64,000 nucleotides of DNA, taken from the IMG/VR virus record IMGVR_UViG_3300042934_000212; one strand, 5' to 3'. Of the stretch, positions 1-64,000 are shown in pieces (position 1 is the first letter of the stretch; every line of letters starts with the position of its first letter). The notes under the pieces were generated by a model. It was given only the letters and a program-made list of their open reading frames with translations. It had not been told where the DNA came from and ran no database searches. Origin of the DNA: a virus. Its lineage: Duplodnaviria > Heunggongvirae > Uroviricota > Caudoviricetes. The position numbers and the translations under genes were made by a program.

Positions 1-1
1 T

Positions 2-3000
2 GTTACAGTTAATGCAACCAGTACATTTAATGCACCCGTCACTGTAAACAGTGATGCGTCTGTAAAAGGTAATACCATCTTAGGTGACGCTGCGACGGAC
101 ACTTTAAAAGTTAATGCTGAATCAACTTTCGAAGCACCTGCTAATTTTAACGGCGACGTTATTGTTGGTGATGCTGTAAGTGATTCACTAACTGTAAATT
201 CAACTGCGAATTTAAAAAATAATGTCAACATCGGGGAAGATGCGACTGACATTCTCGCTATTAAAAGCACAACTAACTTCGATAACAATGTAACTATTGG
301 TGATGCGAAGACTGATGTTCTATCTATTAATAGCAAAACTGATATTAAAAATGATGTGGTTATTGGTGAAGATGCAACTGATACACTAACTATCAACAGT
401 ACTGTTGCTCTAGCTGGGGATATTACTTCTTCAGGAAATGCTACATTCGATGGAAATCTAATTGTAAGTGGTGACACCACCCTAGAGAAATTAACCGTAA
501 ACGGCGATTCTGCTCTAAATGGTTCTTTAACTATGGCTTCTGGTACTACTGCTTCTGTTGATAACCTAGTTATTAATGGTAATATAAGCGGTAACTTTAC
601 ACTAGATAACGGAAATTTCAAAACATTAAATGTAACTGGCGTATCTACTCTTACTTCATTGACAGTTTCAGGTACTTCATCACTAGGTAACGTTAACTTA
701 AATGGTAACATTTCTGGTACTTCAAGTTCTGCAACTTTCAAAACGTATAACGTTGCTGGTTCTGACGGAATCATTCAATTTAGTTATAGCGATCCAGCAA
801 GACCAACTGATATTGTTTCTTCAATCGAACCATATCAAGTAAGTTCAAACAAATTCCAAGGTCAACTTGGTGATTTTGATCGTATTACTGTTGGTGATGT
901 AACTTATAGCACCGCTGGCCTAACCGCAGCAGGTATTGCTAAAATTGATTACCTAGATATTGTTGGTAACTCAACAACTGGTACTGGTCGTTCACAATTA
1001 ACCGTCGCTGGTAAAACAACACTACATGATCTAGAAGTACTTGGTTCTGTAACAGGTCTAACTGTAGATTTAACTGGTCAGGATATTAACCCTAACTCAG
1101 TAACTGCAACGGCTGCTGTTAAAGGGGCTACCTTAGAATCGACTGGTAATACTACTGTTGGTGGTAACTTATCAGTAACTGGACAAACAACTACTGTTAA
1201 AGATTTAGTAGTAACTGGTACAACTACTGGTGTAACTGTAACTGCAAATGTTGATGGACAAGATATTAAACCAAATACAGTTGAAACTACTGGTGATACT
1301 TCTGTTGGTGGTGATCTTTCAGTAACTGGTAACTTTAAAACTGCACTAAAAGCAACTGGTGGTATTACAACAAACTCACTTTCTGTAAGTGGTTCTACGG
1401 TTTTAGCTGCTACTACTGTTAATAGCATGTTAACTGCAAATAGTCTATATAGTAAAACCACATTACAAGTAGATGGTAATACTACACTAGCTGGCAATGT
1501 AACAGTATCGGGACAAACTACTACCGTTAAAGATCTAGTAGTAACTGGAACAACAACTGGTGTAACCGTAACTGCAAACGTTGATGGTCAAGATATTAAA
1601 CCAAATACAGTTGAAACTACTGCTGGTATTAAATCAGGTACTACAATCGCGGCTGTTGGTGCATTGTCTGCCGGTTCTATCTCTACTTCTGGTACATTGT
1701 CAGGTGGAGCAACAACTGTAGACTCATTAACTACTACCGGTAAAGTAACTGCTGCATCTTCTGATGTATCTGGTGCATTGTCTGCTGGTTCTATTACAAC
1801 TTCAACTGTTGGTAATGGTTCAAACGCAGTTAACTTCACCTCTAATGTAACTATGGCTAAAGACCTAACAGTAACTGGTACTCTATCTGCTGGAAGTATT
1901 GATTTGAGTTCTTCAACTCTATCAGTAACTGGTGTTGATACTACTGGTGATGTTAACGTTGGTGGTAATTTAGTTGTATCTGGTTCATTCGACCTAAGTC
2001 AGTCTGATATATATGTTAATTCATTAACTTCAGCTAACGCAGTTGTTGTTTCAAGTACATCTGCTGAATCAAAACTACCTGTACTAACAAGTACAACATT
2101 GAAGTCTAGTACATTAAATGTTACTGGTGCTTCTGTATTATCTGGTCTAACCGCAAGTACAATTACTGCTACTGGTAATTCAACACTTGCTGCTGTTTCT
2201 GCAACTACATTAACTGCATCTGGCACTTCAACCTTTAATGGAAGTATTACCTCTGCAAATAGTACTGTTGCTATTGGAAAATCAACCGAAATTACTGGTG
2301 ATCTATCAGTATCGGGTACACTAACTGCTGGTGTTATTGATTTAAGTACTACTGACGTAACTGTTAAATCATTAGTATCTAATGGTAATACACACGTTAA
2401 AGGTGATTTGGTTGTTGATGGTTCATTTGATCTAAGTGCAACTAATCTATCTGCTGCAAGTCTTGCAAGTTCTGGTTCAACAACTGTTGGAACTTCATTG
2501 ATTCTAACTGACGGTACTATTACTGGTGCTCCTAAAATTTCTGGAAATACAACAATTGGTGGTACTCTAGGTGTTACTGGTGCAACTTCACTATCTTCAC
2601 TAACTACTTCTGGTAATACTACTTTAGGTGGTACTCTAGGTGTAACTGGTGCGATTTCAAAAGTTGGTGGTGGTAGCCTATCTGTTAGTTCTGCAACTGT
2701 GTTCTCAAGTGATGTTACTGTTAATGGCACATTCACCCCAGCAGGTGGTTTAAACCTATCTGGTGCTGATCTTTCAGTAAATTCAGTTACTACTGCTGCT
2801 GCTGTTTCTGTTGGAACAACTTTAGGCGTAACTGGTGCAACTACTCTAGCTGGTTTAACTGCTGCTAATACAACAGTTTCTGGAACACTAGATGTTTCTG
2901 GAAAATCCACTTTGGGTGTTCTTGCTGCTGGTGCAACTACATTGTCAAGTACTCTATCTGTTACAGGTAACACTACTGTAGGTGGTACTTTAACCGTTAA

Positions 3001-4141
3001 TGGTGCAACTGCAACATTGAAAGCTACTTCAGCTACTACAATGACAGTAGGTACTGGTACTGTTGACTCAACCAAAGTTGTTAACGTGTTTGGTGATTCT
3101 GTACTTAATGGTAACTTAGATGTAACTGGTACAATTAACGCATCAATTAACTTAACTGGTCGTGACATTGCTCCACGTGGTATTACCGCTTCTGCTAATA
3201 TTAGTGCTGCTGGTTCAATCACTGCGGGTACTTCTGTTACTGCTGCAACTGCTGTTATTGGTGCATCTGGAAGTACTAACAATAACCTACAGATTAATGG
3301 TAACGCTGTTACTACTGGTGATTTCACAGTAACTGGTAAGATTATTGGTACACTAGACCAAACAACTTCTGATTTAACTGTTAAGAGTATTACTACTTCA
3401 GGTCTTGCAAAAGTTGGTACAACTCTACAGGTTGTTGGAGCATCTACATTAGCTGGTCTATCTGCAACGAACATTACTGCTAGCGGTACTTTAGGTGTAA
3501 CTGGTTCAACTACGTTAGCTGGTGTAACTGCAACTAGTATTTCAAGTTCAGGTACTTTAGGTGTAACTGGTATTTCCACTTTAGGTGTACTAAACGCTGG
3601 TAATACTGCAATCACTGGTACTCTAAGTACTTCAGGACTTGCAACACTATCTTCAGCAAGCGTAACTGGTAATACTACTTTAGGTACTTCATCTTCTAAC
3701 ACTCTAACTGTTAATGCAACGTCTAACTTTGCAAACGCAGTAACTGTTAAAGATATTACTGTTACTGGTACATTGAATACTGATTTGTCTAACTTAGTAA
3801 CCACTTCGTTCAAAACTGGTACTTACTATGTTAAACAACATGCTACTGAAACTGTTAGTACTACTACTTGGACTCCAGATGGTACTTCTAACGTTTATAA
3901 CTTAACTGTATCCTCAGATACTGCTGTTCAGCCAATTTCTGGTGCAACTACTAAAGGTGCAGGTTCATGGTTCATTTACATAACCCAGGATAGTACTGGA
4001 CAACGTAATGTAACTTGGGATTCTTCATACAAGATCATCGGTGGTTCAGTAAACACTAATGCTGGTGCAGTAAGTATTTGCCAAGTAGTTTACTGTGGTA
4101 TTGGTTCAACATTTGATGTGTTCATCGCACAACGCCCATAA
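2..4141 (+). CDS. Very long Gly/Thr/Ser/Val-rich repetitive tail-fibre-like virion protein; 5' end lies outside the window
   Basis: The frame of the 356..4141 ORF is open back to base 2 (VTVNATSTFNAPVTVNSD...). It has many [VL]xVxG beta-repeats and a small C-terminal domain (WFIYITQDSTGQRNVTW). Confidence 0.8.
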   Translation, partial: VTVNATSTFNAPVTVNSDASVKGNTILGDAATDTLKVNAESTFEAPANFNGDVIVGDAVSDSLTVNSTANLKNNVNIGEDATDILAIKSTTNFDNNVTIGDAKTDVLSINSKTDIKNDVVIGEDATDTLTINSTVALAGDITSSGNATFDGNLIVSGDTTLEKLTVNGDSALNGSLTMASGTTASVDNLVINGNISGNFTLDNGNFKTLNVTGVSTLTSLTVSGTSSLGNVNLNGNISGTSSSATFKTYNVAGSDGIIQFSYSDPARPTDIVSSIEPYQVSSNKFQGQLGDFDRITVGDVTYSTAGLTAAGIAKIDYLDIVGNSTTGTGRSQLTVAGKTTLHDLEVLGSVTGLTVDLTGQDINPNSVTATAAVKGATLESTGNTTVGGNLSVTGQTTTVKDLVVTGTTTGVTVTANVDGQDIKPNTVETTGDTSVGGDLSVTGNFKTALKATGGITTNSLSVSGSTVLAATTVNSMLTANSLYSKTTLQVDGNTTLAGNVTVSGQTTTVKDLVVTGTTTGVTVTANVDGQDIKPNTVETTAGIKSGTTIAAVGALSAGSISTSGTLSGGATTVDSLTTTGKVTAASSDVSGALSAGSITTSTVGNGSNAVNFTSNVTMAKDLTVTGTLSAGSIDLSSSTLSVTGVDTTGDVNVGGNLVVSGSFDLSQSDIYVNSLTSANAVVVSSTSAESKLPVLTSTTLKSSTLNVTGASVLSGLTASTITATGNSTLAAVSATTLTASGTSTFNGSITSANSTVAIGKSTEITGDLSVSGTLTAGVIDLSTTDVTVKSLVSNGNTHVKGDLVVDGSFDLSATNLSAASLASSGSTTVGTSLILTDGTITGAPKISGNTTIGGTLGVTGATSLSSLTTSGNTTLGGTLGVTGAISKVGGGSLSVSSATVFSSDVTVNGTFTPAGGLNLSGADLSVNSVTTAAAVSVGTTLGVTGATTLAGLTAANTTVSGTLDVSGKSTLGVLAAGATTLSSTLSVTGNTTVGGTLTVNGATATLKATSATTMTVGTGTVDSTKVVNVFGDSVLNGNLDVTGTINASINLTGRDIAPRGITASANISAAGSITAGTSVTAATAVIGASGSTNNNLQINGNAVTTGDFTVTGKIIGTLDQTTSDLTVKSITTSGLAKVGTTLQVVGASTLAGLSATNITASGTLGVTGSTTLAGVTATSISSSGTLGVTGISTLGVLNAGNTAITGTLSTSGLATLSSASVTGNTTLGTSSSNTLTVNATSNFANAVTVKDITVTGTLNTDLSNLVTTSFKTGTYYVKQHATETVSTTTWTPDGTSNVYNLTVSSDTAVQPISGATTKGAGSWFIYITQDSTGQRNVTWDSSYKIIGGSVNTNAGAVSICQVVYCGIGSTFDVFIAQRP
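1181..1622 (+). repeat. Internal ~112-bp direct duplication (1181-1292 and 1511-1622)
   Basis: Both copies encode GQTTTVKDLVVTGTTTGVTVTANVDGQDIKPNTVETT. They are 330 bp apart and differ only at synonymous sites. Confidence 0.9.
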
Positions 4142-4154
4142 TAGGAGATAAAGG

Positions 4155-16315: not shown

Positions 16316-17689
16316 TTAATCTGTAGTATTTAATGAATTTAGAATCTCTGTTGCTTCACGTTGTTTACCAGCTAGAATAATATCTGCTGCTAGTAATGAA
16401 ACTTCATCACCACGACTAAGAAGTACTACAATATTTCTTGCTAATGGAGATGCTTTAATTCTGTCAGCCAAACCTTGTAGTCCAGATTCTTCAGAACCTT
16501 GTGGAGCACCGTTTTGTGCTGGTGGTTGTTGTCTACCCTGATCTGGTTGCGGTTGTGGTCTGTTTTGTTCTGTATCAGAACCTGCACCACCTACATTTAC
16601 TTCAGGAGCCTCATCACTTTGGTCTTGAGTATCAGTATCACCTTGTTCAGCTTTACTAGACATGTCATCTAGTACTTTACGAGAAATATCAGAAGGAAGT
16701 AATTTTCCTGAATCAGAAATAAAACGACCATCACCTACATACTTATATGAAACACCTTTTTTAGACTTCCATTCTGTACCGATTTTAACAGTTTCAGTGG
16801 AGTTATGTTTCACAATAGCTGCTTGTGCTGCACGTTCTAATGGTGCGGCGGCTGATTGGTTGATTGGTTGTTTAGTTTCTGATGAGAACCAACGACCATT
16901 CTTTTTAAAGTACTTCTTACCTTTACCTGAAGTATATACATATCCATCAGGAACAACAGTACCTTTAGCACTATCTGGAGCCGGTGCATCTGAAGAATTA
17001 GATTCTTCACCGTTCTGTGCCATTTCTTGCTTAGCGTAATTTTTAATTCTATCCATATAAGCTTCAGGATATTCATTACCGTTCTGCAAATCTACAAATG
17101 CATCACCAACATAAGTAAGGGTGTTGCCTCTGTACTGAACAGTAGTTCCTACCGGAAAAACTTCATGAGGATTGTTGTTTAGCTTTTTAATATAATCTTT
17201 TGCTTCAGCGTTGAGTTCTTCTAGATTATCATCTTTCTTTATTACTCGGTCACCTTTATGGAACCAAGCACCTTTGCGATAAATGTAGTCACCCATTTTA
17301 AAGTAACTAGGAATCTCAGTACTGTTTTTGTCACCTAATTTTAGGTCAGAAAATTTATTATCTTCTGCTTCAAATAGATTTTTCACACGAGTATTAATAC
17401 TTTCACTAAGAAGATTGCCGTTAATGGTAAAATTCCCACGGCCTACATAGGTATATGCAGTTTTATTAACTTTATATGATTTACCGATTTGTAATTCATT
17501 ACTTGTGTTGTGTTCGTTAATTTGTTGTAGAGCAGACTTATTCATTTTGAAGTTATGTGTGCTTTCTACAATGTTTAAAGTAGAGCAGTTCATCCAAGAA
17601 CCATCAAGGTACATATATTCTGTACCTTTATTTGATGTATAAACATAGTTATTTGGAATTGAAATGTTATTACCGTAGGATTTAAACAT
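16316..17689 (-). CDS. Structural-region protein with ~6 repeated YxSxKGxxYxYxG modules
   Basis: Repeats such as NYVYTSNKGTEYMYLDGSW, GYVYTSGKGKKYFKKNGRW and EWKSKKGVSYKYVGDGRF. Confidence 0.65.
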   Translation of the reverse strand: MFKSYGNNISIPNNYVYTSNKGTEYMYLDGSWMNCSTLNIVESTHNFKMNKSALQQINEHNTSNELQIGKSYKVNKTAYTYVGRGNFTINGNLLSESINTRVKNLFEAEDNKFSDLKLGDKNSTEIPSYFKMGDYIYRKGAWFHKGDRVIKKDDNLEELNAEAKDYIKKLNNNPHEVFPVGTTVQYRGNTLTYVGDAFVDLQNGNEYPEAYMDRIKNYAKQEMAQNGEESNSSDAPAPDSAKGTVVPDGYVYTSGKGKKYFKKNGRWFSSETKQPINQSAAAPLERAAQAAIVKHNSTETVKIGTEWKSKKGVSYKYVGDGRFISDSGKLLPSDISRKVLDDMSSKAEQGDTDTQDQSDEAPEVNVGGAGSDTEQNRPQPQPDQGRQQPPAQNGAPQGSEESGLQGLADRIKASPLARNIVVLLSRGDEVSLLAADIILAGKQREATEILNSLNTTD

Positions 17690-44464: not shown

Positions 44465-44476
44465 TAAATCAACTCC

Positions 44477-44505
44477 AAAAAAAAAGGAAATCTCTCGATT
44501 TCCTT
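44477..44505 (-). terminator. Intrinsic terminator
   Basis: Minus strand AGGAAATC-GAGA-GATTTCCT-T8. Confidence 0.8.
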
Positions 44506-44506
44506 A

Positions 44507-44535
44507 ATTGTATGCTTTTTACTTTTAAAAGTCAA
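44507..44535 (-). promoter_or_regulatory. Sigma70-like early promoter
   Basis: Minus strand gcTTGACT-17-TACAAT. Confidence 0.7.
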
Positions 44536-44536
44536 G

Positions 44537-44851: not shown

Positions 44852-44853
44852 GA

Positions 44854-45219: not shown

Positions 45220-45295
45220 GGTTGCACCTCGTTAAATGCTTAGGTATGTACCATATTTAATTCTAAAATGTAATTACCGACTTGAAATTAGAATT

Positions 45296-46740: not shown

Positions 46741-46741
46741 A

Positions 46742-47254: not shown

Positions 47255-47255
47255 A

Positions 47256-47684
47256 TTAGTATCCACAGTCGTAGTAGTCAGTTTTAAATGTAATATTGCC
47301 GTCAATGATAACGAAACCAAACATGTAGTTAGTACCTTCACGTTCTTCTAGAATTACGTCAATAAGTCCTAGTTCAGTTTCGATAGCACGTGCTTCGTCG
47401 CGAGTCAGATTATTGTACTCAAATTCAGTTTCATCAATTTCATTTGCTTTGAAAACTTGGTCAATTGCTTCTTCGTTCATATCAAGTACTTCAATAGAAG
47501 ACCAGTGTTCACATGCGTCACCATCATTGAAACCTGGAGTGTAACCAACGATGGTTCCACACGTTAGACCTGGGTATTTGATACCCAAATCTTTGATAAT
47601 CTCTTTAATGATAGTATCTGAATGTTCACTAATTAGAGATAGATATACTTCACGAGCGGTTTTAAATTGTTCTAGAATGTTCAT
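47256..47684 (-). CDS. Paralog 1 of the TPx[FW]NDGxxCxH family
   Basis: GYTPGFNDGDACEHWS ... YYDCGY; TAATG coupling to the upstream NTase. Confidence 0.7.
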   Translation of the reverse strand: MNILEQFKTAREVYLSLISEHSDTIIKEIIKDLGIKYPGLTCGTIVGYTPGFNDGDACEHWSSIEVLDMNEEAIDQVFKANEIDETEFEYNNLTRDEARAIETELGLIDVILEEREGTNYMFGFVIIDGNITFKTDYYDCGY

Positions 47685-48928
47685 TATTTTTTCCCATACC
47701 ATTGCATTTCACGTAGTTCAATAAGTAGCTTAGCTGCTGTATGAATGTTTGGTGCACGTGGTAAATCAGTTTGTTTATATAGTACTTCACGAATGTACTG
47801 ATCTTTTTCAGTCCAGTATGCCATCATTTCATCAAATGACCATGCACCGTTTCTGATTGCTAAAAGTTCTTCAGCATCAGGACGTTTGACATGTACTTCA
47901 CCTGTACTTAATGCTTCTTCAGCAGTTCGAAGTAAACGCACAACATGCATTGCGTGTTTAGTATCATAACCGTTTAGTTGCTCAAGTTCAGAACGTGCTT
48001 CATTGCGATTCTGTTTCCAAGTATGATAGTTGTTCCGGTTATCAGAACTTTTTTCATATTCATCTTTATTGAATTTAACAATTAAGCGGGGTTGCTCTTT
48101 TACTTCTTCGATAGAAAGATTAGAGGTATCAATGCGATGAATACTACCATCATCATTGATAGTTTTAGCACCAGCCTTTGGAACTAAGCCAAAGATGTTA
48201 TCACCATAAGGCACTAACTGATAATCATTCCTGTAATGAAGAATATTGAAATCGCGATCTAGAACTTGATGTTCGAAGTAGTTATGAACCAATTTAACGA
48301 AATGATACTGTTTAAGAGGTAATGTACTGATCATTTGCAATGAAGCATTACGCATGAACTTTTCGAAATCAATAATAGTTTTGATGTAAGAACCACGTGC
48401 GTGTTCAACATTAACTAGATTCATGATATACGAAGGGAAAGAATCTCCGACCCATTCGATCATTTGTTCGCATGGGTATTGATCGATTAGTTCCTGAAGA
48501 ATACGAACTCCAGTACGTTCTTTATCCATCCAACCGTGATGGTTTTTCATACGCTTAGCTTGGTTATGAGCATAACCTGTATAAGTGAATGCAATTTTAG
48601 ATGAAAGAAGGTCTGAACGTGCAGCCCGAAGGTGATCATACATTTCAGTTTTGAAAGTAATATCAGATTCGTCAACCCATAGTGATTCAAGAATATTTGG
48701 GTTTGCGGTTAGATAAAGCTGCATGTAGTTGTTAAGTTCGTAGTACTTTGTATCTTCTTCATTAGCATCACTGACTTCATTAACTTTGAAGAAAGGTGTA
48801 ATGATGAATTCTTTCTCTGCAACAAAGATACCCCTGTAATCAGTATCAGATGTTGGGGTACTAGTTCCGTAAGCTTGGCTACCCGCCAAGTGTCGGACAA
48901 TAAGATTATCCAAATGGTTGTTTTTCAT
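47684..48928 (-). CDS. Pol-beta-superfamily nucleotidyltransferase (RlaP/YcgL-like)
   Basis: AGSQAYGTSTPTSDTDYRGIF (GS..DxD), ANPNILESLW, GYDTKHAMHVVRLL. Confidence 0.85.
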   Translation of the reverse strand: MKNNHLDNLIVRHLAGSQAYGTSTPTSDTDYRGIFVAEKEFIITPFFKVNEVSDANEEDTKYYELNNYMQLYLTANPNILESLWVDESDITFKTEMYDHLRAARSDLLSSKIAFTYTGYAHNQAKRMKNHHGWMDKERTGVRILQELIDQYPCEQMIEWVGDSFPSYIMNLVNVEHARGSYIKTIIDFEKFMRNASLQMISTLPLKQYHFVKLVHNYFEHQVLDRDFNILHYRNDYQLVPYGDNIFGLVPKAGAKTINDDGSIHRIDTSNLSIEEVKEQPRLIVKFNKDEYEKSSDNRNNYHTWKQNRNEARSELEQLNGYDTKHAMHVVRLLRTAEEALSTGEVHVKRPDAEELLAIRNGAWSFDEMMAYWTEKDQYIREVLYKQTDLPRAPNIHTAAKLLIELREMQWYGKK

Positions 48929-48936: not shown

Positions 48937-49800
48937 TTACAAATAGTTATCTCGTCCGTGCTGCATAAGTCTGTCAATAATTAGTTGATAATACTCTTCA
49001 GAACGTTCAATCAAAACACAGTTTCTGTTAAGATTTACTGCACTAAGTGCAGTTGTACCGGAACCACCGAATGGATCAAGAATCCAATCCTGTTCTTCAG
49101 TACTCAATTTTACGTAAAAATTAGGTATATCAATTGGAAACACTGCTGGATGACCAATGTTCAAATTACTGGTACTGCACGTTATCACATTACTTGGTCT
49201 TACCATATCTTCAGCAACCCGCTTAGACATATTCATTGAAGAACCATTTGTGACGTTATGCTCACCTTTATTTTTACGTCTCTTTTCACTTTCCAAATAC
49301 TTAGAAGTACTCGGTACTCTTACTTCATCTGGAAAGAATTTATATCGATTGGTGTGGTTGAATTGATAAATCCGTTCAAACCCATCCTTCAAACGAGTCT
49401 TGGCACCAGTTGGAAAAGGATTAGTCTTGTTCCAAATGTACTCATCACTCCAGTTGTATAATTCAGCAATATCAATTATTGTTTTGTAAACGTAAGTATC
49501 TCTACTACCTTTATCAACATGCTCTTTAATATTAAAGAAATACGAACCATCCTCATGAAGAATGTTCATTATATCAGTACTAATGGAAGTGTACCACGAA
49601 GGGAAGTCTTCTACTGAAATACTGTCATAAACATCTTTACGCTGTTCAGCGTAAGGAGGGGAGGTAATCACAGCGTTGAACTTGAAATCAGAATTTAAAA
49701 ACAAATCTTTCATTACTTCTGCACAATCGCCGTTGATCACTATTACTGTACTGGAACCTAACTCAATCCTTTGGTGTGGGAAATTACCTACGTATTCCAT
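48937..49800 (-). CDS. Orphan beta-class DNA methyltransferase, probably N4-cytosine
   Basis: Motif IV TSPPY precedes motif I LDPFGGSGTT; HPAVFP. Confidence 0.9.
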   Translation of the reverse strand: MEYVGNFPHQRIELGSSTVIVINGDCAEVMKDLFLNSDFKFNAVITSPPYAEQRKDVYDSISVEDFPSWYTSISTDIMNILHEDGSYFFNIKEHVDKGSRDTYVYKTIIDIAELYNWSDEYIWNKTNPFPTGAKTRLKDGFERIYQFNHTNRYKFFPDEVRVPSTSKYLESEKRRKNKGEHNVTNGSSMNMSKRVAEDMVRPSNVITCSTSNLNIGHPAVFPIDIPNFYVKLSTEEQDWILDPFGGSGTTALSAVNLNRNCVLIERSEEYYQLIIDRLMQHGRDNYL

Positions 49801-53290: not shown

Positions 53291-56020
53291 TTAATGCCAA
53301 CGTGTTCCGGTGCTTGACGGAACGCCTGTACTGGTAGGGATTGCCGAACCTCGCTTGGTCGTACTGGTACGATAAGTCAAGAATCGAGTTACCTTTTCAA
53401 TTGAAACTGTACTAATTGAACTTGCTCCAGTAACAACACTACCAATATATACTCTCCATAATTCTTCAGAAAGTAATGTAGTACTTAGCTGGTATGAGGC
53501 TGTACCCTCTAAATTAAAGACGTAAACGTAGAAAGTCTTATTCGCCGGAGCAGAATCAATTGTGTTTAAGTCGATTGTAGTAGCTGGTATTGTATAATAC
53601 GAACCATTAATCAACACTGGAACAGTTTGACTGAAATACACATTGAATCCTTTTGGTACATCCTGTGATGCTATCACAATATTAGTTCCAGATATTGTTG
53701 GATTAGCTATTAAACTGTCTAAATTAGCAGATGATGTACCACTGCTTTTGAAAACAAGTTTAGTTTGAAGATCTGATAAATTATTTGTATATAAACCAAA
53801 ACCAACTCCAGGTATAACTCCTACTTCGTAGGTGTTCCCTGTGCTTAAAAAATATGATGTAAATGCTGTCATTGATACAAAATTATTTGAAGTATCTAAT
53901 TTACCAATCACTGATCTAAATGAAGCATTACCAGGAACTTTAATATTACATATTGCTGGAATTCCTATATAAGAAAATCCTGAATATTTTGCAATTACCA
54001 ATCCAGTCATTCTAGTTATATATGAGTAGTCAATTTCCAATGCTGAACTTGACACACCCATGATATTATTATAAGTAACAGACATACTAGTTACTGTAGA
54101 ACCAGATAATGATACATTAACTTTACTTACAATCACAAATCCATTATATCCAGAACCATCTTTAGTACTTGTTATAATGGTCGTTATCGCAATACTACTA
54201 CCAAATGAACTATCAGGTACATAATATAGAACAATCCTACTGTCTGTTATTGTTCCAGGGTATGTTACTGATGAAATAATAGAATTCTTAAGATTTGTTA
54301 GAATCGTCGAACTTTGTAACGTATAATTAGTATTAAATGTGAAATTATTAATATTCATTAATCCATTAACTGGTTTTGAGTTACCTTCTAAAAAAGTTGA
54401 ACCATATACAGAAACATTTCCATTGGCATCTATTAGTTGAATTAAACCACTGTATCTATAATCAGAATTATCAATTTTGTGTCGATTGCTATTTGGTGCA
54501 TATCCTGTAATAGTACTATCAGAAACTACTGAATTGTAAACATAATCACGTGTGTTCCCTAAATCAGTATAAACCTTATTGTCATATCCAAAAGTTACAT
54601 CATTTTCTGTTCCCGCACAACTCATTAGAATTTTATTTGATGAAAGAATAGTTGGGTTCAATAAATTAGAACCAATAGCAGAGCCGTATTGTGGATAAAC
54701 GTAACTATAAATTATTTTTGATGTTTTTCGCGTAGATAAATTTAATGAATCATAATTATTGGTAAAATTATCCAATTTACAACGTAGAATCGTAAAGTAA
54801 TCACCAGTTACAAACCTAGCTACTGAACTAAAAACCACGCCATCATCAGTTTGGAATAGACTAGTACCCGAATGAATACTGTTACCAAATCCATTATAAT
54901 TTTGTAAATCAAAGTTGTAAGGATTTGTACTATTAATAGAACTTCCATTAAGTCTGATGGTGATTGGACCCGCATTTTTAGTATCAAATGTGTATACTTT
55001 ACTGTTTTTATTATAGCTGAAACTTAAACCATATGTTATAACGTCTCCACCAAAAGCTGATTGAGAATATACCCTGTGTATCACCGATACTCTTATATTA
55101 TCTAAAACCACATCAGGTTCTGCATTCAATGTACCATAACTTGTAACATAAAATGGGGTAACGGTTAATGATGCATCTTGTAGGATTAATGGATGATCAT
55201 CACTATTTGTACTACAAATGGTATCAGTTATTTTTATTGTATTTGAATTTGTAACATTAGAACCATATAAATTTTTTCCTGAAATTCCAGAAACTAATTT
55301 AAGAGAGGTAGTTACTCCATTAATAACATCTGATGTACTAATTGTATATAAAGATATATTATAAGGTTCAGAAATTATAGTTGAATTAATACACCATATA
55401 TAAATCAAACCATCTACAATATGTACATAGTTTGGTGTTGTATTTGGGATTAATGATCTATTAAATTCTACGAATTCATGGGAAACTTGATTAAATGTTC
55501 CATTAGTTAGTGCAATTGTATACGTATCTTCAGTTCCGTTGAAAGTTTGCATCATAAGAACTTCATTAGATTTACTTGCAATAAAATCACTAATTGAATG
55601 TAAACTAGTAAAGATTGAAGGTAAGTACTCTAAGTTGGTTTGGATAGGTGTTAATGTGTTAACATTTCTTGCATTCTTAATGTAGCAATAATAAAACCCC
55701 TGTGAACTACCATTTGTTCCAGGTCTAAGGATTACCATAGTTCCATCATTTTCCAAGATAGTTGGGAAACCTCGCAATGATGCCGAAGTAGTTGCTCCAA
55801 CATAAGAACCTCCCACATTAAGTGGGAGGTAATCTAATGTACCAATTCTTGTCACTGGACACATTGATATAATATTTTCTATATAAGTTTTTTCATAATA
55901 GGGGAGATTAATATCCCCCGACGTGTCTGCGTGAAGGCCATTAATCTCTCTAATAGTATTCGAATCATTAACTTGAATATTACCAGTGGAGCTTAAGTCT
56001 CCATATATTTTCTTTGCCAT
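53291..56020 (-). CDS. Tail fibre/baseplate-associated protein, paralog
   Basis: ILENDGTMVILRPGTNGS; C-terminal GSAIPTSTGVP; Ser/Thr/Asn-rich. Confidence 0.7.
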   Translation of the reverse strand: MAKKIYGDLSSTGNIQVNDSNTIREINGLHADTSGDINLPYYEKTYIENIISMCPVTRIGTLDYLPLNVGGSYVGATTSASLRGFPTILENDGTMVILRPGTNGSSQGFYYCYIKNARNVNTLTPIQTNLEYLPSIFTSLHSISDFIASKSNEVLMMQTFNGTEDTYTIALTNGTFNQVSHEFVEFNRSLIPNTTPNYVHIVDGLIYIWCINSTIISEPYNISLYTISTSDVINGVTTSLKLVSGISGKNLYGSNVTNSNTIKITDTICSTNSDDHPLILQDASLTVTPFYVTSYGTLNAEPDVVLDNIRVSVIHRVYSQSAFGGDVITYGLSFSYNKNSKVYTFDTKNAGPITIRLNGSSINSTNPYNFDLQNYNGFGNSIHSGTSLFQTDDGVVFSSVARFVTGDYFTILRCKLDNFTNNYDSLNLSTRKTSKIIYSYVYPQYGSAIGSNLLNPTILSSNKILMSCAGTENDVTFGYDNKVYTDLGNTRDYVYNSVVSDSTITGYAPNSNRHKIDNSDYRYSGLIQLIDANGNVSVYGSTFLEGNSKPVNGLMNINNFTFNTNYTLQSSTILTNLKNSIISSVTYPGTITDSRIVLYYVPDSSFGSSIAITTIITSTKDGSGYNGFVIVSKVNVSLSGSTVTSMSVTYNNIMGVSSSALEIDYSYITRMTGLVIAKYSGFSYIGIPAICNIKVPGNASFRSVIGKLDTSNNFVSMTAFTSYFLSTGNTYEVGVIPGVGFGLYTNNLSDLQTKLVFKSSGTSSANLDSLIANPTISGTNIVIASQDVPKGFNVYFSQTVPVLINGSYYTIPATTIDLNTIDSAPANKTFYVYVFNLEGTASYQLSTTLLSEELWRVYIGSVVTGASSISTVSIEKVTRFLTYRTSTTKRGSAIPTSTGVPSSTGTRWH

Positions 56021-56029
56021 AAGTTATCC

Positions 56030-58789
56030 TTACCAATTTATTGTACCTGTTTGTGCTGGGTTTCCAGTACTTACAGGGAATGCAGAGCCAATCTGTGTTT
56101 CACTTGGTCGGTAAATTCCGAACCTTGAAACCTTTGTAATATTTAGGTCAGACACCTTAGTGCCATCTGTTTGAATGTTGCCTATGTACATATTTGTATT
56201 ACTTTCTTCAATTTCAGTAAGACTGACTTTATACTGTGGTGTCCCTGAACTTGATTCAACATACACATAGAATTTAGTATTTCCTGGATTAGATTTAATT
56301 GTACTCAAATCAATTACAGTTATTGGCATTTCAAAGAACGTACCATTCATTAGTACTGGAGTTACTTCAGTAAAGTACAAATAAAATCCCTGAATAACAT
56401 CCTGAGCTAAAATAACAGTAGGTGTAGGAGTACCAATAGGAGTGCCGTTTCCTTGCGGCATATTATTTTGGAATTCATTAAGAGTTTTACCTCGATAGTC
56501 AAATACCAATTTTGTCCCTTTATCTGTTTTTTCAAACATATAAAACCCAAATCCATAATTAGGAATATAACTATATTCTCTTGCTGTCGTGAATAAATCT
56601 GGTGCATGATAACTTCTGTTCATTAGAACTGATGATAAATTACTTCCTGATTTAACGCCTGCATATGAATATTCTTCACTGTCACCTGGTACAATAATGT
56701 TTATCGCATGTGGTAATGCTACGTAGGTAAAATCACTGTAGTTAACAACACTCATCCCGCCATGTCTAGCCATTTCAGAAGAACTTAAACCATTTGATGC
56801 GATACCAGTCATAGAAGAATGTACATAATTATTAATTACCGTATTCAATGAAATTGCTGATATAGCATTTCCAGTTAGTGTGACGTTCACCGAAGCTAAA
56901 ATTAAATTACCACCAGACCCTGAACTACTTACTGCACTTATACAAACCACACTATTGAAGTACGCAGTATTAGGTGAATAATATAAACTCAATTGACTAG
57001 CAGATACTGACAATCCAAGTGACGAAATAATAGAATTCTTAACATTAGTAAGTAATGAATTATCTACTGTTATGTTTTTATCATAGGTTAATGTAATAGG
57101 ATCAAGCTTATAACCACATGAAAGTATTTTATCCTCGACGAATAATGTCCCGTAGAATGAAACATTTCCTGATGAATCACAATATGAAATTCCACCGTAT
57201 GTACTTGTCGTTAACGGTACGCGATATGACTGTGGAGCATAACCGGGTATAGTTCCATTGGTGAATGATTTGTAGCTATAGGTTCTAGTGGTTCCAATAT
57301 CAGAAACGCCTTTTTGGTACTTATCGTATGAAGTACCGTCATATGTACCTGTACCACTAAAAATTATACGCGTTGAACTGATTGGTATACCACCCATCAA
57401 CTGATCACCAACTCTTGATGCATAATCAGCATAAACATTATATTGTACTTGATTTGAGAATGTTCTGTTCCTAAAATTATATGCATTAACTTTGGAAGTA
57501 AATGAATTTATCTTACCAGAGTACACAGCATAAGAATCACTTAATACATATTTTTCACGAATATAGTACTGCGTTCCTGTGTTGGTTACATAGATACATC
57601 CACGTAAACTATCTGATACTGCTGTACCAAAACCAAACAAATTAGCACTAGTTACCGAGTATGGATTATTAAAAGTAATAGAACCAGTACTAGAACCATT
57701 AAATGTAATAGGAGTTGCTGATAAGTCTGAAGTAAACACGTTAGTGTTTGGATTAAACTTAACTACAAATGAATATGATGTATCATATCGATTTGTATCA
57801 TTAGTGCAATATGTATTTGATGATATGTTTATGTTTATATTAGTACCGTCGTATATACATTTAAACATCCCTGGCATTGAATAAGTATATGGTGCACAAC
57901 TATTAAATGTAGCTTGGTACTTAATAAACGAATTCGTACTGGTAGCTGTTGTACTAGCCCATACATCCGCTAATCTAATATAGTTCTGTGATCCTTGTGC
58001 TGAACCATACATTGTATTTCCTGTAATACCAGAAACACGCTCAACTGTATTAATAGTGCCTGCATTGATTTCAGAAACCAATACTCTGTACATTACAATC
58101 TGTAATGGGTCATTAATATTATATTGAACTCCGGTTGGAGAATTTGCATTAAATGAAGAACAGTACAAACACGCCATGTACACGTATGCACCAGCCACCG
58201 TCGCTGACAAAATGTAATAAGGAATCAATGATCTAGCAAAGGTTGCTTCCTTGTGACTTTCTTTATTCAACGTTCCATTTGTTAAAACTACATGAACCAC
58301 GTTATTTGCAACTTCTTCATAAACTAGACAGTTTGATGCGTCAGAATCAGCAAAAAGAATATTGTTCCATGAACCTTCATAGTACTTGTTAATTGTAGTA
58401 TAAGGACGCATGGTTGAATCTGGATTATTGATATAAGTGTAGTAGTAATTAATAGTGCTACCGTTTGTTCCAGGTCGTAGATATACTAAAGAGCCATCAT
58501 TTTCTAAGAGAACTGGCATCGCTGAATAATACGAAACTGTACTACCGCCATCGAACGTACCAGCAACTCCAGGCTCGTTGTTGTTTATTGCACCATATTG
58601 TGAAAATGGTAATTGTCCGAATACTTTATCAACATCATCTTTAAGTGTAATTGGTAAATCGATTACACCTGATGTATCAGGAGTATAAGTAATTCCATCA
58701 CCAGTTAGTGATACATTTAATCCAGGTTGTTTGCCTTGGATTATCATTGTTCCGGTGGTTTTTACATCACCTTTAATATTATAAGACAT
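56030..58789 (-). CDS. Tail fibre/baseplate-associated protein, paralog
   Basis: LLENDGSLVYLRPGTNGS; C-terminal GSAFPVSTGNPAQTGTINW. Confidence 0.7.
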   Translation of the reverse strand: MSYNIKGDVKTTGTMIIQGKQPGLNVSLTGDGITYTPDTSGVIDLPITLKDDVDKVFGQLPFSQYGAINNNEPGVAGTFDGGSTVSYYSAMPVLLENDGSLVYLRPGTNGSTINYYYTYINNPDSTMRPYTTINKYYEGSWNNILFADSDASNCLVYEEVANNVVHVVLTNGTLNKESHKEATFARSLIPYYILSATVAGAYVYMACLYCSSFNANSPTGVQYNINDPLQIVMYRVLVSEINAGTINTVERVSGITGNTMYGSAQGSQNYIRLADVWASTTATSTNSFIKYQATFNSCAPYTYSMPGMFKCIYDGTNININISSNTYCTNDTNRYDTSYSFVVKFNPNTNVFTSDLSATPITFNGSSTGSITFNNPYSVTSANLFGFGTAVSDSLRGCIYVTNTGTQYYIREKYVLSDSYAVYSGKINSFTSKVNAYNFRNRTFSNQVQYNVYADYASRVGDQLMGGIPISSTRIIFSGTGTYDGTSYDKYQKGVSDIGTTRTYSYKSFTNGTIPGYAPQSYRVPLTTSTYGGISYCDSSGNVSFYGTLFVEDKILSCGYKLDPITLTYDKNITVDNSLLTNVKNSIISSLGLSVSASQLSLYYSPNTAYFNSVVCISAVSSSGSGGNLILASVNVTLTGNAISAISLNTVINNYVHSSMTGIASNGLSSSEMARHGGMSVVNYSDFTYVALPHAINIIVPGDSEEYSYAGVKSGSNLSSVLMNRSYHAPDLFTTAREYSYIPNYGFGFYMFEKTDKGTKLVFDYRGKTLNEFQNNMPQGNGTPIGTPTPTVILAQDVIQGFYLYFTEVTPVLMNGTFFEMPITVIDLSTIKSNPGNTKFYVYVESSSGTPQYKVSLTEIEESNTNMYIGNIQTDGTKVSDLNITKVSRFGIYRPSETQIGSAFPVSTGNPAQTGTINW

Positions 58790-58798
58790 TTGGTTTCC

Positions 58799-59380
58799 TT
58801 ACCATGAAATAGTTCCAGACTGTGAAGGTAATCCCGTACTTACAGGGAACGATGCACCTGCTGGTGTAGTACTTGGACTGAATACATCTAGTCTAGAACG
58901 TGAAATGATATTAGTTGCAGTAATTGAACTTGCACCTGTTGTGATAGTTCCAATCCAGAAGTTATTATATGCATTGCTTCCGGTTTCTGCAATTACAACA
59001 TCCGTTATTAAGTATTGAGCTAATCCTTGATCCATCGTTATATAAACATAGAAAGTAGTATTAGCTGGGGATGTTTTTACTGTAGTTAAATCGACAGTAC
59101 TAACAGGAAGCGTTAAGTAGTTACCACTTAGGATTGCAGAATTAACTGAATTGAATGTAATCTTATAACCACTATATGTTACCAAACCAGTATTTGGTAC
59201 GAAGTTTGAAATGGGAAGCACACTTATCATATCAAGTAACTGGTCAGATGTGTATGAGTCTACAGTAAACCCTAGAGTAGTACTGTCACGTGCAGTTCCA
59301 TTTAACGAGGTTACCACCGCATTACCGTTCGAGTAAGCAGTTTTACCTACGTTCAATGTTCCTTTAACAATTTTTGCCAT
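58799..59380 (-). CDS. Short paralog carrying only the shared N- and C-terminal fibre domains
   Basis: Start reassigned to MAKIVKG; C-terminal GASFPVSTGLPSQSGTISW. Confidence 0.7.
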   Translation of the reverse strand: MAKIVKGTLNVGKTAYSNGNAVVTSLNGTARDSTTLGFTVDSYTSDQLLDMISVLPISNFVPNTGLVTYSGYKITFNSVNSAILSGNYLTLPVSTVDLTTVKTSPANTTFYVYITMDQGLAQYLITDVVIAETGSNAYNNFWIGTITTGASSITATNIISRSRLDVFSPSTTPAGASFPVSTGLPSQSGTISW

Positions 59381-59411
59381 TTTTATTATCCCTAAATTTA
59401 TAGTTATGATG

Positions 59412-59417
59412 TATTTA
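59412..59417 (-). promoter_or_regulatory. T4-late-like TAAATA box
   Basis: After a terminator and 32 nt upstream of the fibre operon. Confidence 0.6.
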
Positions 59418-59431
59418 TTAGGGGTACAAAC

Positions 59432-59456
59432 AAAAAAGGCACCCATACGGGTGCCT
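59432..59456 (-). terminator. Intrinsic terminator
   Basis: GGCACCC-N4-GGGTGCC-T6. Confidence 0.85.
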
Positions 59457-59459
59457 ATA

Positions 59460-59615
59460 TTAATCACTATCAGTGTCTTCGACGAATGTAACTTTAACTT
59501 CGAAGTGACCTTTCGGATCACCGAAATCATCTACGGTAATATCGTCAGAATTCAAAATGTCCATTGGGTCAAAGTCTTCAATATCACGAAGTACTTTATC
59601 ATAAACAACTATCAT
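59460..59615 (-). CDS. Small acidic protein (51 aa), below the ORF-track cutoff
   Basis: MIVVYDKVLRDIEDFDPMDILNSDD...; ATGA overlap with the upstream stop. Confidence 0.6.
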   Translation of the reverse strand: MIVVYDKVLRDIEDFDPMDILNSDDITVDDFGDPKGHFEVKVTFVEDTDSD

Positions 59616-60037
59616 CCGAATTTCTCTCTTAGTTTTTCTAAATCAATATTATATTGCTTAGCTTCCCATTGAACAGGATCATCACCGTGCATATCCAAAC
59701 GAGTATGCATTGTACTGCTCCAAGATCTGGAATTCCATATTCTCCGACGAGAACAACAACCAGCCAGATTTAAACGATGAAGTACTTGACGAACTATATC
59801 AACATGTACATTACATTCAGCAGCAATTTTTTCAGCGAACCAAATATAATCTACTGATGGATGCAAGCCTTTACCGTCCAATAATCCTTTTACAATAATA
59901 TCAAAAGCCTTATCTACTGACATTTTCTTACCTTTTGGGAAGTAAGTTTTCTCTCGCTTTTTACCAACTAGAGCATGTGTATTGTAACACCATCTGCGAT
60001 AAGTACTTTCATTTTTTCGATCATCTTTCTTTTTCAT
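59612..60037 (-). CDS. Hypothetical protein (possible winged helix)
   Basis: FAEKIAAECNVHVDIVRQVLHRLNLAG. Confidence 0.55.
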   Translation of the reverse strand: MKKKDDRKNESTYRRWCYNTHALVGKKREKTYFPKGKKMSVDKAFDIIVKGLLDGKGLHPSVDYIWFAEKIAAECNVHVDIVRQVLHRLNLAGCCSRRRIWNSRSWSSTMHTRLDMHGDDPVQWEAKQYNIDLEKLREKFG

Positions 60038-60207
60038 AAATCCAATTCAATCTTTTGATATGCCATTTGCATTCTTTCATCTTCTGGTATGTCTGCGATT
60101 AGAGAATGTTTCTTTAAGGTAGAAGAACTTAACACGATACTTCTACCCAAAGATAATGTGAATATTGTTCCAGTATGAATTCCTTGGGTTACAATATATA
60201 ATTCCAT
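60034..60207 (-). CDS. Small hypothetical protein (57 aa), below the ORF-track cutoff
   Basis: MELYIVTQGIHTG...; TAATG and ATGA overlaps at both ends. Confidence 0.6.
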   Translation of the reverse strand: MELYIVTQGIHTGTIFTLSLGRSIVLSSSTLKKHSLIADIPEDERMQMAYQKIELDL

Positions 60208-60779
60208 TAGTGTGTTTCGAAAATGAAGCTATGGCTAAGATATTCTAGAATACGATCTGGCATTTCTTCATGAGTGTACTTACGCATGTCAACGAAAGGA
60301 ATGTTCATATCAACTAGAGTTTGTACGAATAATTCATCAATTACACGAGCTTCCTCTAGGGTTTGAGTTCTTCCATATGCATCATATTCTGGCTTACGTG
60401 GAAGTAAAAATACTACATTATCGTACTGACGATATAACTCGAACGCAATCTCAGTACTGATGTTATCCGAATCTTCATAGAACTCATTGTAGATGATACC
60501 ATTAAGTAATGATGCATCAGATACAACGAAATCCACCTTTCCTGATAAACGGAATAGGCGGTGATTCTGTTGAGCAGTAATTAGTACTTGATCCTGCATT
60601 GCCATTTTGTTTTCATCGTATACGTAATCTTTAATTACTTCTGTAACGATTTCCACTTTCTTGTTGGTGTGCAACTTCATCTTTGCAAACAAACCTGCTG
60701 CTGTAGTACTTTTTCCGCAGCACGGACCACCAACCAAATTGATAACTACTGTGTTCATATTACTCTCCATGTAAACCAA
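60207..60779 (-). CDS. NadR/AAA_28-type P-loop nucleoside/nucleotide kinase
   Basis: NLVGGPCCGKSTTAA; VSDASLL; YDAYGRTQ. Confidence 0.75.
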   Translation of the reverse strand: MVYMESNMNTVVINLVGGPCCGKSTTAAGLFAKMKLHTNKKVEIVTEVIKDYVYDENKMAMQDQVLITAQQNHRLFRLSGKVDFVVSDASLLNGIIYNEFYEDSDNISTEIAFELYRQYDNVVFLLPRKPEYDAYGRTQTLEEARVIDELFVQTLVDMNIPFVDMRKYTHEEMPDRILEYLSHSFIFETH

Positions 60780-61023
60780 TATAACGACGATACCACGACA
60801 TTAGTGGACCGTTAAAATCTTCACAGTAACGGGAAGAACGTAAACGTGCGTGGATTGAAATAGCATTTTGGAAATGTTTTGTCATTTCAAAAGTACCTGC
60901 TTCTTTTTCTTCACGGATGGTTTTAAACAAATACTCAACTGCTTCAATATACAATTCAGATTCGTTACCATTTTTAAATTTATCTACAATTTCTTTTAGA
61001 TAAACATCTTCAAGTGTATTCAA
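60760..61023 (-). CDS. Hypothetical protein
   Basis: ORF track. Confidence 0.55.
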   Translation of the reverse strand: MNTLEDVYLKEIVDKFKNGNESELYIEAVEYLFKTIREEKEAGTFEMTKHFQNAISIHARLRSSRYCEDFNGPLMSWYRRYIGLHGE

Positions 61024-62278: not shown

Positions 62279-62397
62279 AGAAATACAACGCCCTGGAATT
62301 TTGGTAGTTACGTTGAGTAGGGATATTCCAGTACTAGCATTGCAGCATAAACGGTCTTACATCTGGTTTTTGCCAGAAAGCACGGCTTTGTATTTCT
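62279..62397 (-). ncRNA. Candidate ~120-nt structured RNA in the tyrS 3' intergenic region
   Basis: 10-bp closing stem AGAAATACAA/TTGTATTTCT plus 3 bp, enclosing TCTGG/CCAGA and CTGGAAT/ATTCCAG stems. Confidence 0.5.
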
Positions 62398-63675: not shown

Positions 63676-63684
63676 CTTTATTCC

Positions 63685-63969
63685 TTAATCTTCAGTTTTT
63701 TCTTCAACAACACCTAGAATACAATCTTCTGGCATTATCATGATATATTCGTTGTCAATTTTCTCGCGGTGAATTCGGGAATCACCTTCGATGTAGGTAA
63801 CAATATCACCTACTTTAATTTCAGCTTGCACACCTGGACCAACTGAAATAATTTCTGCGTGAGTGGTTTCATCTTCACCGCTTGCGGTTAATAGAATTCC
63901 ACCAGAACTTTTAGCTTCACGAATCACTTTTTTAGCGATTAGGTGATAATAAACTGGACGTATATTCAT
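63685..63969 (-). CDS. groES: GroES-like co-chaperonin
   Basis: NIRPV, KSSGGILL mobile loop, IISVGPG, IKVGDIV, EDCILGVV. Confidence 0.92.
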   Translation of the reverse strand: MNIRPVYYHLIAKKVIREAKSSGGILLTASGEDETTHAEIISVGPGVQAEIKVGDIVTYIEGDSRIHREKIDNEYIMIMPEDCILGVVEEKTED

Positions 63970-64000
63970 TACTCATTACCCTCAGAAACTGAACTAAGTC

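Follow-up and report, generated by a model that had tools for sequence, protein, structure and literature searches.

The palindrome AGTACT occurs 128 times in the 64-kb window (the whole stretch of DNA analysed here), whereas base composition predicts 21.5 copies, an approximately 6-fold excess. The analysis supports a DNA-level signal that neither amino-acid pairs nor codon usage explain, and likewise supports the view that the word behaves as if it were selected. We place a probability of roughly 0.5 on the reading that AGTACT, in the form M-AGTACT-K, may be a selected, density-based recognition word for a putative DNA-binding factor. Avoidance of short palindromes is textbook behaviour for phages, and here a restriction-type palindrome is the most frequent hexamer in 350-kb genomes and shapes their codon and amino-acid usage.

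The size of the excess depends on the null model: Markov-1 and Markov-2 models predict 20.7 and 38.9 copies in the window, respectively, while the maximal-order Markov ratio of 1.06 is uninformative because the AGTAC and GTACT pentamers are themselves inflated by AGTACT. TGTACA, a palindrome of the same composition, occurs 28 times across the window; the original prediction had placed at least 25 AGTACT and about 4 TGTACA in positions 36,001-48,000, and our counts there are 28 and 4. It had also proposed a codon-aware correction, which the excess survives: when synonymous codons were shuffled within each gene, leaving proteins and codon usage unchanged, 39.3 +/- 5.8 copies were predicted in the coding DNA of the window against 118 observed (3-fold; z 13.6), and AGTACT ranked first among the 4096 hexamers.

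The excess is independent of coding. Sites fall in all three reading frames (61 as AGT-ACT, 24 as xAG-TAC-Txx, 33 as xxA-GTA-CTx, with 10 outside called genes), each frame exceeding its codon-usage expectation by 2.7- to 6.9-fold, and 35-47% of the synonymous opportunities to write the word are taken (about 40% in every frame). Protein sequence is affected as well, the window having 154 Ser-Thr dipeptides where 116 are expected and its sister genome (G001) 698 where 499 are expected. Non-coding DNA of the sister genome holds 102 copies where 12.5 are expected, an 8-fold excess that is stronger than in coding DNA. The examples that had been given for the three frames and for non-coding elements proved correct, and they are listed here with the full set of sites.

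1-64000, no strand assigned: AGTACT at 128 scattered sites, each 8 kb holding 12-20 of them, 498 bp apart on average.
398-403, plus strand: AGTACT in frame 0, AGT ACT, Ser-Thr, in a large 5'-open ORF (2-4141).
1036-1041, plus strand: AGTACT in frame xxA-GTA-CTx, GAA-GTA-CTT, Glu-Val-Leu.
16909-16914, minus strand: AGTACT in frame xAG-TAC-Txx, AAG-TAC-TTT, Lys-Tyr-Phe, in ORF 16316-17689.
31884-31889, minus strand: intergenic AGTACT that shares the final base of a TTGACA -35-like hexamer, upstream of ORF 31400-31810.
43445-43450, minus strand: AGTACT within the 43.1-43.8 kb ORF-free element.
43617-43622, minus strand: AGTACT in the 43-kb element without ORFs, centred within a repeat of about 60 nt (…gactgctAGTACTctaacggg…).
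62330-62335, minus strand: intergenic AGTACT in the 62.3-kb spacer.

The promoter-like element at 31884 reads CTTGACAGTACTG...17 nt...ATTATAAG, and the element of about 60 nt around 43617 has four copies in the sister genome (13216, 69899, 149771 and 233150). The base preceding the word is A in 37% of cases, C in 34%, T in 21% and G in 7%, with the complement following it in mirror symmetry, so the sole flank preference is M-AGTACT-K (A or C before, T or G after), G before and C after being disfavoured.

The window is Rak2/GAP32-type jumbo myovirus DNA. The excess is clade-wide and convergent: in the sister genome (98% identical to the window) AGTACT is the commonest hexamer, with 757 copies against 118.6 expected, and again ranks first after synonymous permutation (652 against 206; z 35.7), and GAP32, Munch and CBB carry 110-123 copies per 50 kb, while the Pseudomonas relative PA5oct has 1 against 14 expected. 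In unrelated proviruses of about 30 kb (G002-G005) and a 78-kb phage (G007) the word ranks first or second after permutation, the ratio of observed to expected being 13 in the provirus G005. A lysozyme domain was the only match shared between provirus and jumbo proteomes by BLASTP, and a mobile HNH endonuclease was common only to GAP32 and two proviruses; beyond these two, BLASTP found no gene common to the three AGTACT-rich lineages, and no candidate reader, a comparison blind to very divergent or merely analogous proteins. The 4.64 Mb of E. coli contain 400 copies, a density 23-fold below that of the window; the count is 0.70 of the Markov-2 expectation, which points to no specific avoidance by the host.

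Sites are evenly spaced and turn over at steady density. The coefficient of variation of spacing in the sister genome is 0.847; random placement gives 0.998 +/- 0.036, and none of 3000 simulations reached so low a value. The largest AGTACT-free gap across the 355 kb of that genome is 2.5 kb; in the window and three relatives the coefficient is 0.80-0.87. Conservation in alignments, a check that the original prediction had put forward, came out in its favour, 35 of 73 sites being kept between the window and GAP32 where frame-matched hexamers predict 15.5 (about twice the baseline) and where just 52% of four-fold degenerate sites are identical. Between the window and its sister (about 2% divergence) 16 and 14 sites differ, which equals baseline turnover; individual sites are thus lost as fast as any hexamer, and per-site selection must be weak. 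Polarity could be assigned to 15 of these differences, of which about 10 appear to be gains and 5 losses.

Taken as a recognition word, AGTACT, best described as the 8-bp palindrome (A/C)AGTACT(T/G), would be written into the double-stranded DNA of the phage lineage, with selection probably acting on how many sites there are and how evenly they cover the DNA (roughly one in every 0.4-0.5 kb), and not on particular positions. Its most likely use would be as the binding or recognition site of a putative symmetric (dimeric) sequence-specific factor along the whole phage chromosome. A protein reading the word could tag phage as against host DNA, protect or compact it, or recruit enzymes. Such a factor corresponds to no recognisable phage methyltransferase and to no gene detectably common to the three lineages, which suggests either a host factor or host-clade-specific pressure, or analogous phage proteins that evolved independently. 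The host-clade argument is weakened by the polymerase of the 78-kb phage, which lies nearest to a Bacillus phage polymerase (38% identity), and by its tail sheath the Xanthomonas phage XbC2 is closely related (87%), which we count against the recognition-word reading. More tentatively, and in our judgement rather unlikely in this specific form, AGTACT may act through its density (about 23 times that on the E. coli chromosome) as an identity tag for unmodified phage DNA. The putative factor would count or coat it so that phage DNA is handled differently from that of the host, and at least two or three unrelated lineages would have converged on it; examples would be a shield against nucleases that translocate, a selective form of compaction or replication, and sparing from the phage's own host shut-off.

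A functionless, context-specific mutation bias of polymerase or repair could create AGTACT without any reader, and it would suit the short-term loss at the neutral baseline, the gains that equal or exceed losses in frequency, and the several recent differences that are single transitions between AGTGCT or AGCACT and AGTACT. We nevertheless consider it improbable. The same word recurs in three unrelated lineages whose replication genes differ, sites are spread more regularly than chance would give, amino-acid usage leans toward Ser-Thr, and no neighbouring word is drained; moreover, a bias with a palindromic specificity of 6-8 bp would itself require a sequence-specific enzyme. Selection of AGUACU in transcripts, as the site of an RNA-binding protein or ribonuclease or as a pairing module, also receives little credence from us. 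Nearly the whole genome is transcribed, intergenic sites lie inside polycistronic units, the palindrome yields AGUACU in RNA whichever the strand or gene orientation, and sense-strand flanks in the sister genome are slightly asymmetric (AAGTAC 521, GTACTT 375). That asymmetry is, however, explicable by codon constraints, the pooled flank preference is nearly mirror-symmetric, some sites are in promoters, ahead of the transcription start (31884, at the -35 element, for example), and we know of no RNA factor that reads the word.

The even coverage and density-type selection would also suit an enzyme needed all along the DNA, the word then being a host primase start, a type II topoisomerase cleavage site or the site of a phage nickase, which we likewise judge to be a slim prospect. 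The primase version would copy template TACTG into a pppAGUA primer, and the topoisomerase version would cut A^GTAC^T with a 4-bp stagger. CAGTACTG holds on both strands the CTG that we take to be the DnaG trinucleotide; against a primase start, a CTG flank is found at merely about one third of jumbo-phage sites, and trinucleotide primase sites are abundant already. Phage Mu needs a strong gyrase site, but what E. coli gyrase prefers is a degenerate motif spanning about 130 bp, not a hexamer (PMC6379681).

A HIP1-like origin, in which AGTACT is marked by a phage methyltransferase and driven up in frequency by methylation-linked selection or Vsr-type biased mismatch repair, appears very improbable. 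An N6/N4 methylase (PF01555) is encoded in the window at 48937-49800 and retained in GAP32 and CBB at 80% identity, and a C5 methylase is present in the sister genome. The PF01555 gene is, however, absent by a clean indel from that sister (98% identical, 757 sites), and from Munch and PA5oct, and Munch and the proviruses G005 and G002 are AGTACT-rich yet have no match to PF01555, PF02086 or PF00145, so that across the three families screened no cognate methyltransferase consistently co-occurs with the word. As for repair, VSP-type depletion of deamination neighbours was not significant: of the neighbours that disrupt GTAC, only the two transition neighbours AATACT (0.88; z -1.9) and AGTATT (0.92; z -1.4) fall slightly under 1 in the codon-aware test, and their joint deficit of about 40 words compares with a surplus of about 446 AGTACT in the coding DNA of the sister genome. 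The original prediction of a DNA-level signal under selection is therefore supported by the frames, the 8-fold non-coding excess, even spacing, conservation and Ser-Thr usage, whereas its methyltransferase-linked part is not supported, the methylase being missing from the sister genome and Munch, where the excess exists regardless, and neither is its biased-repair part, as no single-substitution neighbour is depleted enough to supply the excess.

Extremely improbable is a passive by-product, with the removal of many other restriction-type palindromes, together with codon usage and amino-acid pairs, channelling the sequence into a "safe" AGTACT. The absence of GCGC and 23-33 palindromic hexamers from all AGTACT-rich lineages and the lack of both excess and purge in PA5oct would suit it. 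Permutation, however, rejects it at the level of synonymous choice (39-41 copies predicted with or without a ban on 30 purged words, 41 +/- 5 with it, against 118), unpurged AT-rich palindromes in the window remain at 0.4-1.6 of expectation, and non-coding DNA shows the greater excess.

If a reader exists, it would add an undescribed layer of phage chromosome biology (self-DNA recognition without base modification, protection or genome organisation), and an identity tag, if true, would be a new class of phage genome signal. A reader would also provide simple experimental handles in ScaI sites, oligonucleotide baits and recoded genes. In metagenomes the word serves as a practical signature of lineage members and their recently acquired genes. 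AGTACT-rich phages would be extremely sensitive to AGTACT-specific restriction.

Several known systems invite comparison. To our knowledge, the site of SlmA, which occurs in enterobacteria, is the only host DNA-binding site with an AGTACT core. The SlmA-binding sequence of E. coli is GTGAGTACTCAC, in which SlmA strongly requires G1, T2 and, at position 3, a purine (PMC3020112). As a reader SlmA was rejected: GT(R) half-site flanks are at background (42 against 35 expected), G precedes the word in only 7% of cases, and the full site has 0 copies in any AGTACT-rich genome. As in restriction-site avoidance, AGTACT is a classical type II palindrome (ScaI/Eco255I-type systems), the genome of the window completely purges 25 other hexamer palindromes and GCGC, and the relative PA5oct avoids AGTACT (1 against 14). 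The sign is nevertheless opposite, a 6-fold excess that stays 3-fold above and not below the codon-aware expectation, with no conserved cognate methylase, and avoidance was rejected for this word; CTGCAG, CAGCTG, GGTACC and GATATC have 0-2 copies in the codon-aware test. AGTACT does resemble HIP1 (GCGATCGC) and the alternate highly iterated palindromes of cyanobacteria, being a short palindrome in many-fold genome-wide excess, independent of frame and found in non-coding DNA, and kept over evolutionary time. HIP1, however, belongs to cellular genomes and is an 8-mer with a methylated CGATCG/GATC core and co-occurring cognate methyltransferases, unlike AGTACT, whose carriers are phages and whose excess is also found in genomes without a recognisable methyltransferase. 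Chi (GCTGGTGG), KOPS and DUS/USS are over-represented functional oligomers read by RecBCD, FtsK and the uptake machinery, respectively. With 2 copies, Chi shows no enrichment in the window, and these words are asymmetric, orientation-biased and host-owned, whereas AGTACT is palindromic, hence without orientation, and rare in E. coli; what it has in common with them is density-type selection on a dispersed word, protein-read in their case and putatively so for AGTACT, whose copies turn over while their density stays constant.

AGTACT occurs 128 times in the window, against 21.5 sites expected from base composition, 20.7 under a first-order and 38.9 under a second-order Markov model, and its second-order z-score is the highest of all hexamers. 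The counts for 36-48 kb in the original prediction proved correct (28 AGTACT and 4 TGTACA), as did all of its examples of sites in the three frames and in non-coding DNA. Under a maximal-order Markov model the observed/expected ratio (O/E) is 1.06, which is uninformative because the pentamers of that model contain the AGTACT signal. The 118 sites within called genes comprise 61 read as AGT-ACT, 24 as xAG-TAC-Txx and 33 as xxA-GTA-CTx. Permuting synonymous codons inside each gene, with protein and per-gene codon usage unchanged, yielded 39.3 ± 5.8 sites (z = 13.6, rank 1 of 4096), and a whole-codon shuffle yielded 29. AGTACT occupies 35-47% of the positions that the proteins permit, 2.7-6.9 times the codon-usage expectation, and does so in each of the three frames. 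Ser-Thr dipeptides are themselves enriched (154 vs 116 expected). The enrichment originally proposed thus persists under codon-aware control, with O/E not near 1 and amino-acid pair usage not a full explanation.

Megablast and tblastn placed the window in the Rak2/GAP32 group of ~350-kb enterobacterial jumbo myoviruses. Among named phages, Cronobacter phage GAP32 matches best (79% identity across 43% of a 12-kb probe), and its genes 140-211, including tail sheath, tube, lysozyme, RNA ligase and tRNA nucleotidyltransferase, are syntenic with the window; the window's tail sheath shares 87% identity with its XbC2 phage counterpart. The nearest record, the sister genome G001, is 355,155 bp long, carries direct terminal repeats and is 98% identical to most of the window. 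The assembled contigs carrying this DNA come from soil, plant and food metagenomes. Identity to the sister is just 83% at 53600-60800, against 98% elsewhere; this fast-evolving or recombinant segment codes two paralogous ORFs (909 and 919 aa) resembling Pseudomonas phage EL gp115-like structural proteins. In G001, AGTACT is the commonest hexamer (757 sites), again ranking first after synonymous permutation (652 observed vs 206; z = 35.7). Its non-coding DNA holds 102 sites against 12.5 expected.

The sequence logo of the AGTACT flanks in the window carries information solely at positions -1 and +6, where A or C is favoured on the 5' side and T or G on the 3' side in mirror symmetry, and a preceding G is rare (7%). 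Because only the adjacent base is informative, AGTACT is not a piece of a longer repeat. Distances between close sites peaked only weakly, at 20-21 and 30 bp, and a robust helical period was not found. A role as a promoter element in the window was also rejected: only one site there abuts a -35 hexamer, and four promoter-like sequences, each preceded by an A/T-rich tract, carry no AGTACT. These are listed with a further non-coding feature:

11700, minus strand: promoter-like TGAAAC-N17-(G)GTATAAT, no AGTACT
14608, minus strand: promoter-like TGAAAC-N17-(G)GTATAAT, no AGTACT
35991, minus strand: promoter-like TGAAAC-N17-(G)GTATAAT, no AGTACT
43798, minus strand: promoter-like TGAAAC-N17-(G)GTATAAT, no AGTACT
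43560-43680, minus strand: one copy of a ~60-nt conserved element, within the ORF-free 43-kb element

The ~60-nt element (…cgtagtcttatgtcgctttgt(a/t)tgactgctAGTACTctaacgggt…) has at least four dispersed copies in G001, at 13216, 69899, 149771 and 233150, and may represent a family of small RNAs or regulatory cassettes.

The spacing of AGTACT in G001 is more even than random, with a coefficient of variation (CV) of 0.847 vs 0.998 ± 0.036 and none of 3000 simulations that low; the longest gap free of the word is 2.5 kb. Similar CVs (0.80-0.87) were obtained for the window and three relatives. In codon alignments with the jumbo relatives GAP32, CBB and Munch, AGTACT is retained at roughly double the rate of frame-matched hexamers, for example at 35 of 73 sites vs 15.5 expected, with four-fold degenerate sites ~52% identical. 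Comparison of the window with G001 shows 16 and 14 differing sites, which is exactly the baseline turnover of hexamers, and when polarised by GAP32 or CBB about 10 of the differences resemble gains and 5 resemble losses. From this baseline rate and excess of gains, single sites turn over while density is held, whereas a 6-fold excess in neutral decay should give mainly losses. Such turnover is consistent, at the level of sequence comparison, with weak per-site selection for number and coverage. Biased repair, which the original prediction had offered as one source of the signal, was not borne out, as no neighbouring word is drained: Vsr-like repair is rejected by AATACT at 0.88 and AGTATT at 0.92 of expectation, a deficit of ~40 against an AGTACT surplus of ~446. 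A sequence-specific mutational bias producing AGTACT is given little weight.

The same genomes are purged of restriction-type words. GCGC is absent from the window and from the 355 kb of G001, and stands at 1.8-fold in E. coli, named as host; its total absence could reflect restriction avoidance or a self-encoded GCGC nuclease. Twenty-five palindromic hexamers, nearly all of the S....S type, are missing from the window (GATATC remains twice), and GGTCTC/GAGACC, CCCAGA/TCTGGG, ACTGGG/CCCAGT, GATGTC/GACATC, GAGGAG/CTCCTC, AGGTCC/GGACCT and CCGATC/GATCGG are absent on both strands, while GAAGAG occurs 12 times vs 90 expected in G001 coding DNA. A synonymous shuffle in which the creation of any of 30 absent words was forbidden yielded 41 ± 5 AGTACT, the same as without the constraint, vs 118 observed, and the AT-rich palindromes outside the purge lie at 0.4-1.6 of expectation. 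The excess is therefore not a by-product of the purge. As a separate observation, TATTTA is strongly depleted inside genes, with 3 copies in the window where 30 are expected and 30 copies in G001 where 163 are expected. TAAATA, AAAAAA and other A/T runs are likewise depleted in the coding regions of both, in agreement with an intragenic avoidance of sequences that resemble T4-type late promoters (TATAAATA) or -10 elements.

In syntenic stretches of 50 kb, AGTACT is the top hexamer of each of three relatives, with 121 sites in GAP32, 110 in Munch and 123 in CBB vs ~17 expected. PA5oct, a relative that infects Pseudomonas (47% identity in the tail sheath, G+C 33%), retains GCGC and most palindromes; its segment 98678-141299 has one AGTACT site vs 14.2 expected and no GTAC excess. 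It thus appears to avoid the word that its enterobacterial cousins accumulate. Words enriched in PA5oct include CCGG (2.6-fold) and CTGCAG (15 vs 3.3). A pattern scan of viral contigs for further AGTACT-dense genomes recovered a siphovirus-like provirus family with members of ~26-31 kb (G002-G005). In G005, AGTACT is the commonest hexamer (129 sites, O/E 13), almost every site reads CAGTACTG, 28 sites lie in 3.5 kb of non-coding DNA and GCGC is absent. The scan also recovered G007, a terminally repetitive phage of 78 kb whose PolA shares 38% identity with that of Bacillus phage BCD7; it has 139 AGTACT sites, a 2.5-fold GTAC excess and only 5 GCGC, where 81 would be expected. When synonymous codons are permuted, AGTACT takes the top rank in both G005 and G002 and the second rank in G007. 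Two other dense loci, one of them in Bacillus phage SP-15, were set aside as local repeats with no genome-wide excess. Megablast of G002 and G005 against 5,426 E. coli genomes gave no match, and G002 is integrated beside yeiQ/uxuA/yeiP-like genes 71% identical to those of E. coli, so its host is a relative of E. coli rather than E. coli itself. The 4.64-Mb genome of E. coli K-12 carries 400 AGTACT, a density 23-fold below that of the window. Specific avoidance of the word by the host was rejected: O/E is 0.30 by composition but an unremarkable 0.70 under the second-order model (rank 609 of 4095).

Several candidate readers of the word were examined. The original prediction had likened the enrichment to HIP1, with a link to a methyltransferase, and a PF01555 N6/N4 DNA methyltransferase gene does lie at 48937-49800 on the minus strand of the window and is kept in GAP32 and CBB (80% amino acid identity). 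The gene holds 3 AGTACT sites and is therefore an old resident that was lost by G001, from which it is precisely missing (a clean indel, junction at 64555-64565). It was not found in Munch or PA5oct, and Munch, G005 and G002 gave no match to PF01555, PF02086 or PF00145. This pattern of presence and absence, with G001 and Munch rich in AGTACT and lacking the PF01555 gene, argues strongly against a methylase link as far as these three families are concerned. The host protein SlmA requires G1 and T2 of its site GTGAGTACTCAC (PMC3020112); these flanks are at background and the full site is absent from all these genomes. The gyrase motif in the literature is degenerate and covers 130 bp (PMC6379681), and was rejected on that ground; more generally, we consider it doubtful that AGTACT is an enzyme site for a primase, topoisomerase or nickase. 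Pfam searches of the provirus early genes returned no matches. By BLASTP, the provirus and jumbo proteomes have only a T4-type lysozyme domain in common, and a mobile HNH endonuclease (phrog_953) is common only to GAP32 and G005/G002 and absent from G001, G003 and G004, so a reader gene common to the lineages was rejected.

Taken together, the sequence data are consistent with AGTACT being a dispersed recognition word in duplex DNA, which a putative protein would read symmetrically as (A/C)AGTACT(T/G) and which would be selected for number and even coverage. We infer that the preference for a base bearing an amino group (A or C) on the outside of each half-site is a pattern typical of direct protein readout. 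Since three lineages have no detectable DNA-binding gene in common and the Pseudomonas sister avoids the word, the selective agent is more likely linked to the host group, or to an ecological pressure common to these phages, than to a single phage protein passed down by descent; phage proteins that are merely analogous are possible readers. Binding may mark phage DNA against the sparser host background, coat or protect it, compact it, or recruit an enzyme of replication or DNA topology. An RNA-level role of AGUACU is considered improbable.

Searching the phage literature for AGTACT or CAGTACTG turned up no paper on AGTACT enrichment, and a search on jumbo-phage methylomes found nothing relevant. 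The AGTACT excess belongs among over-represented functional oligomers or iterated palindromes, and its putative reader is experimentally accessible. The nearest analogue is cyanobacterial HIP1, which is associated with a methylase, an association that our comparison did not recover for AGTACT. Chi, KOPS and DUS work on the same principle, in which a protein reads a word scattered along the DNA; unlike the palindromic AGTACT, however, they are asymmetric words of the host.
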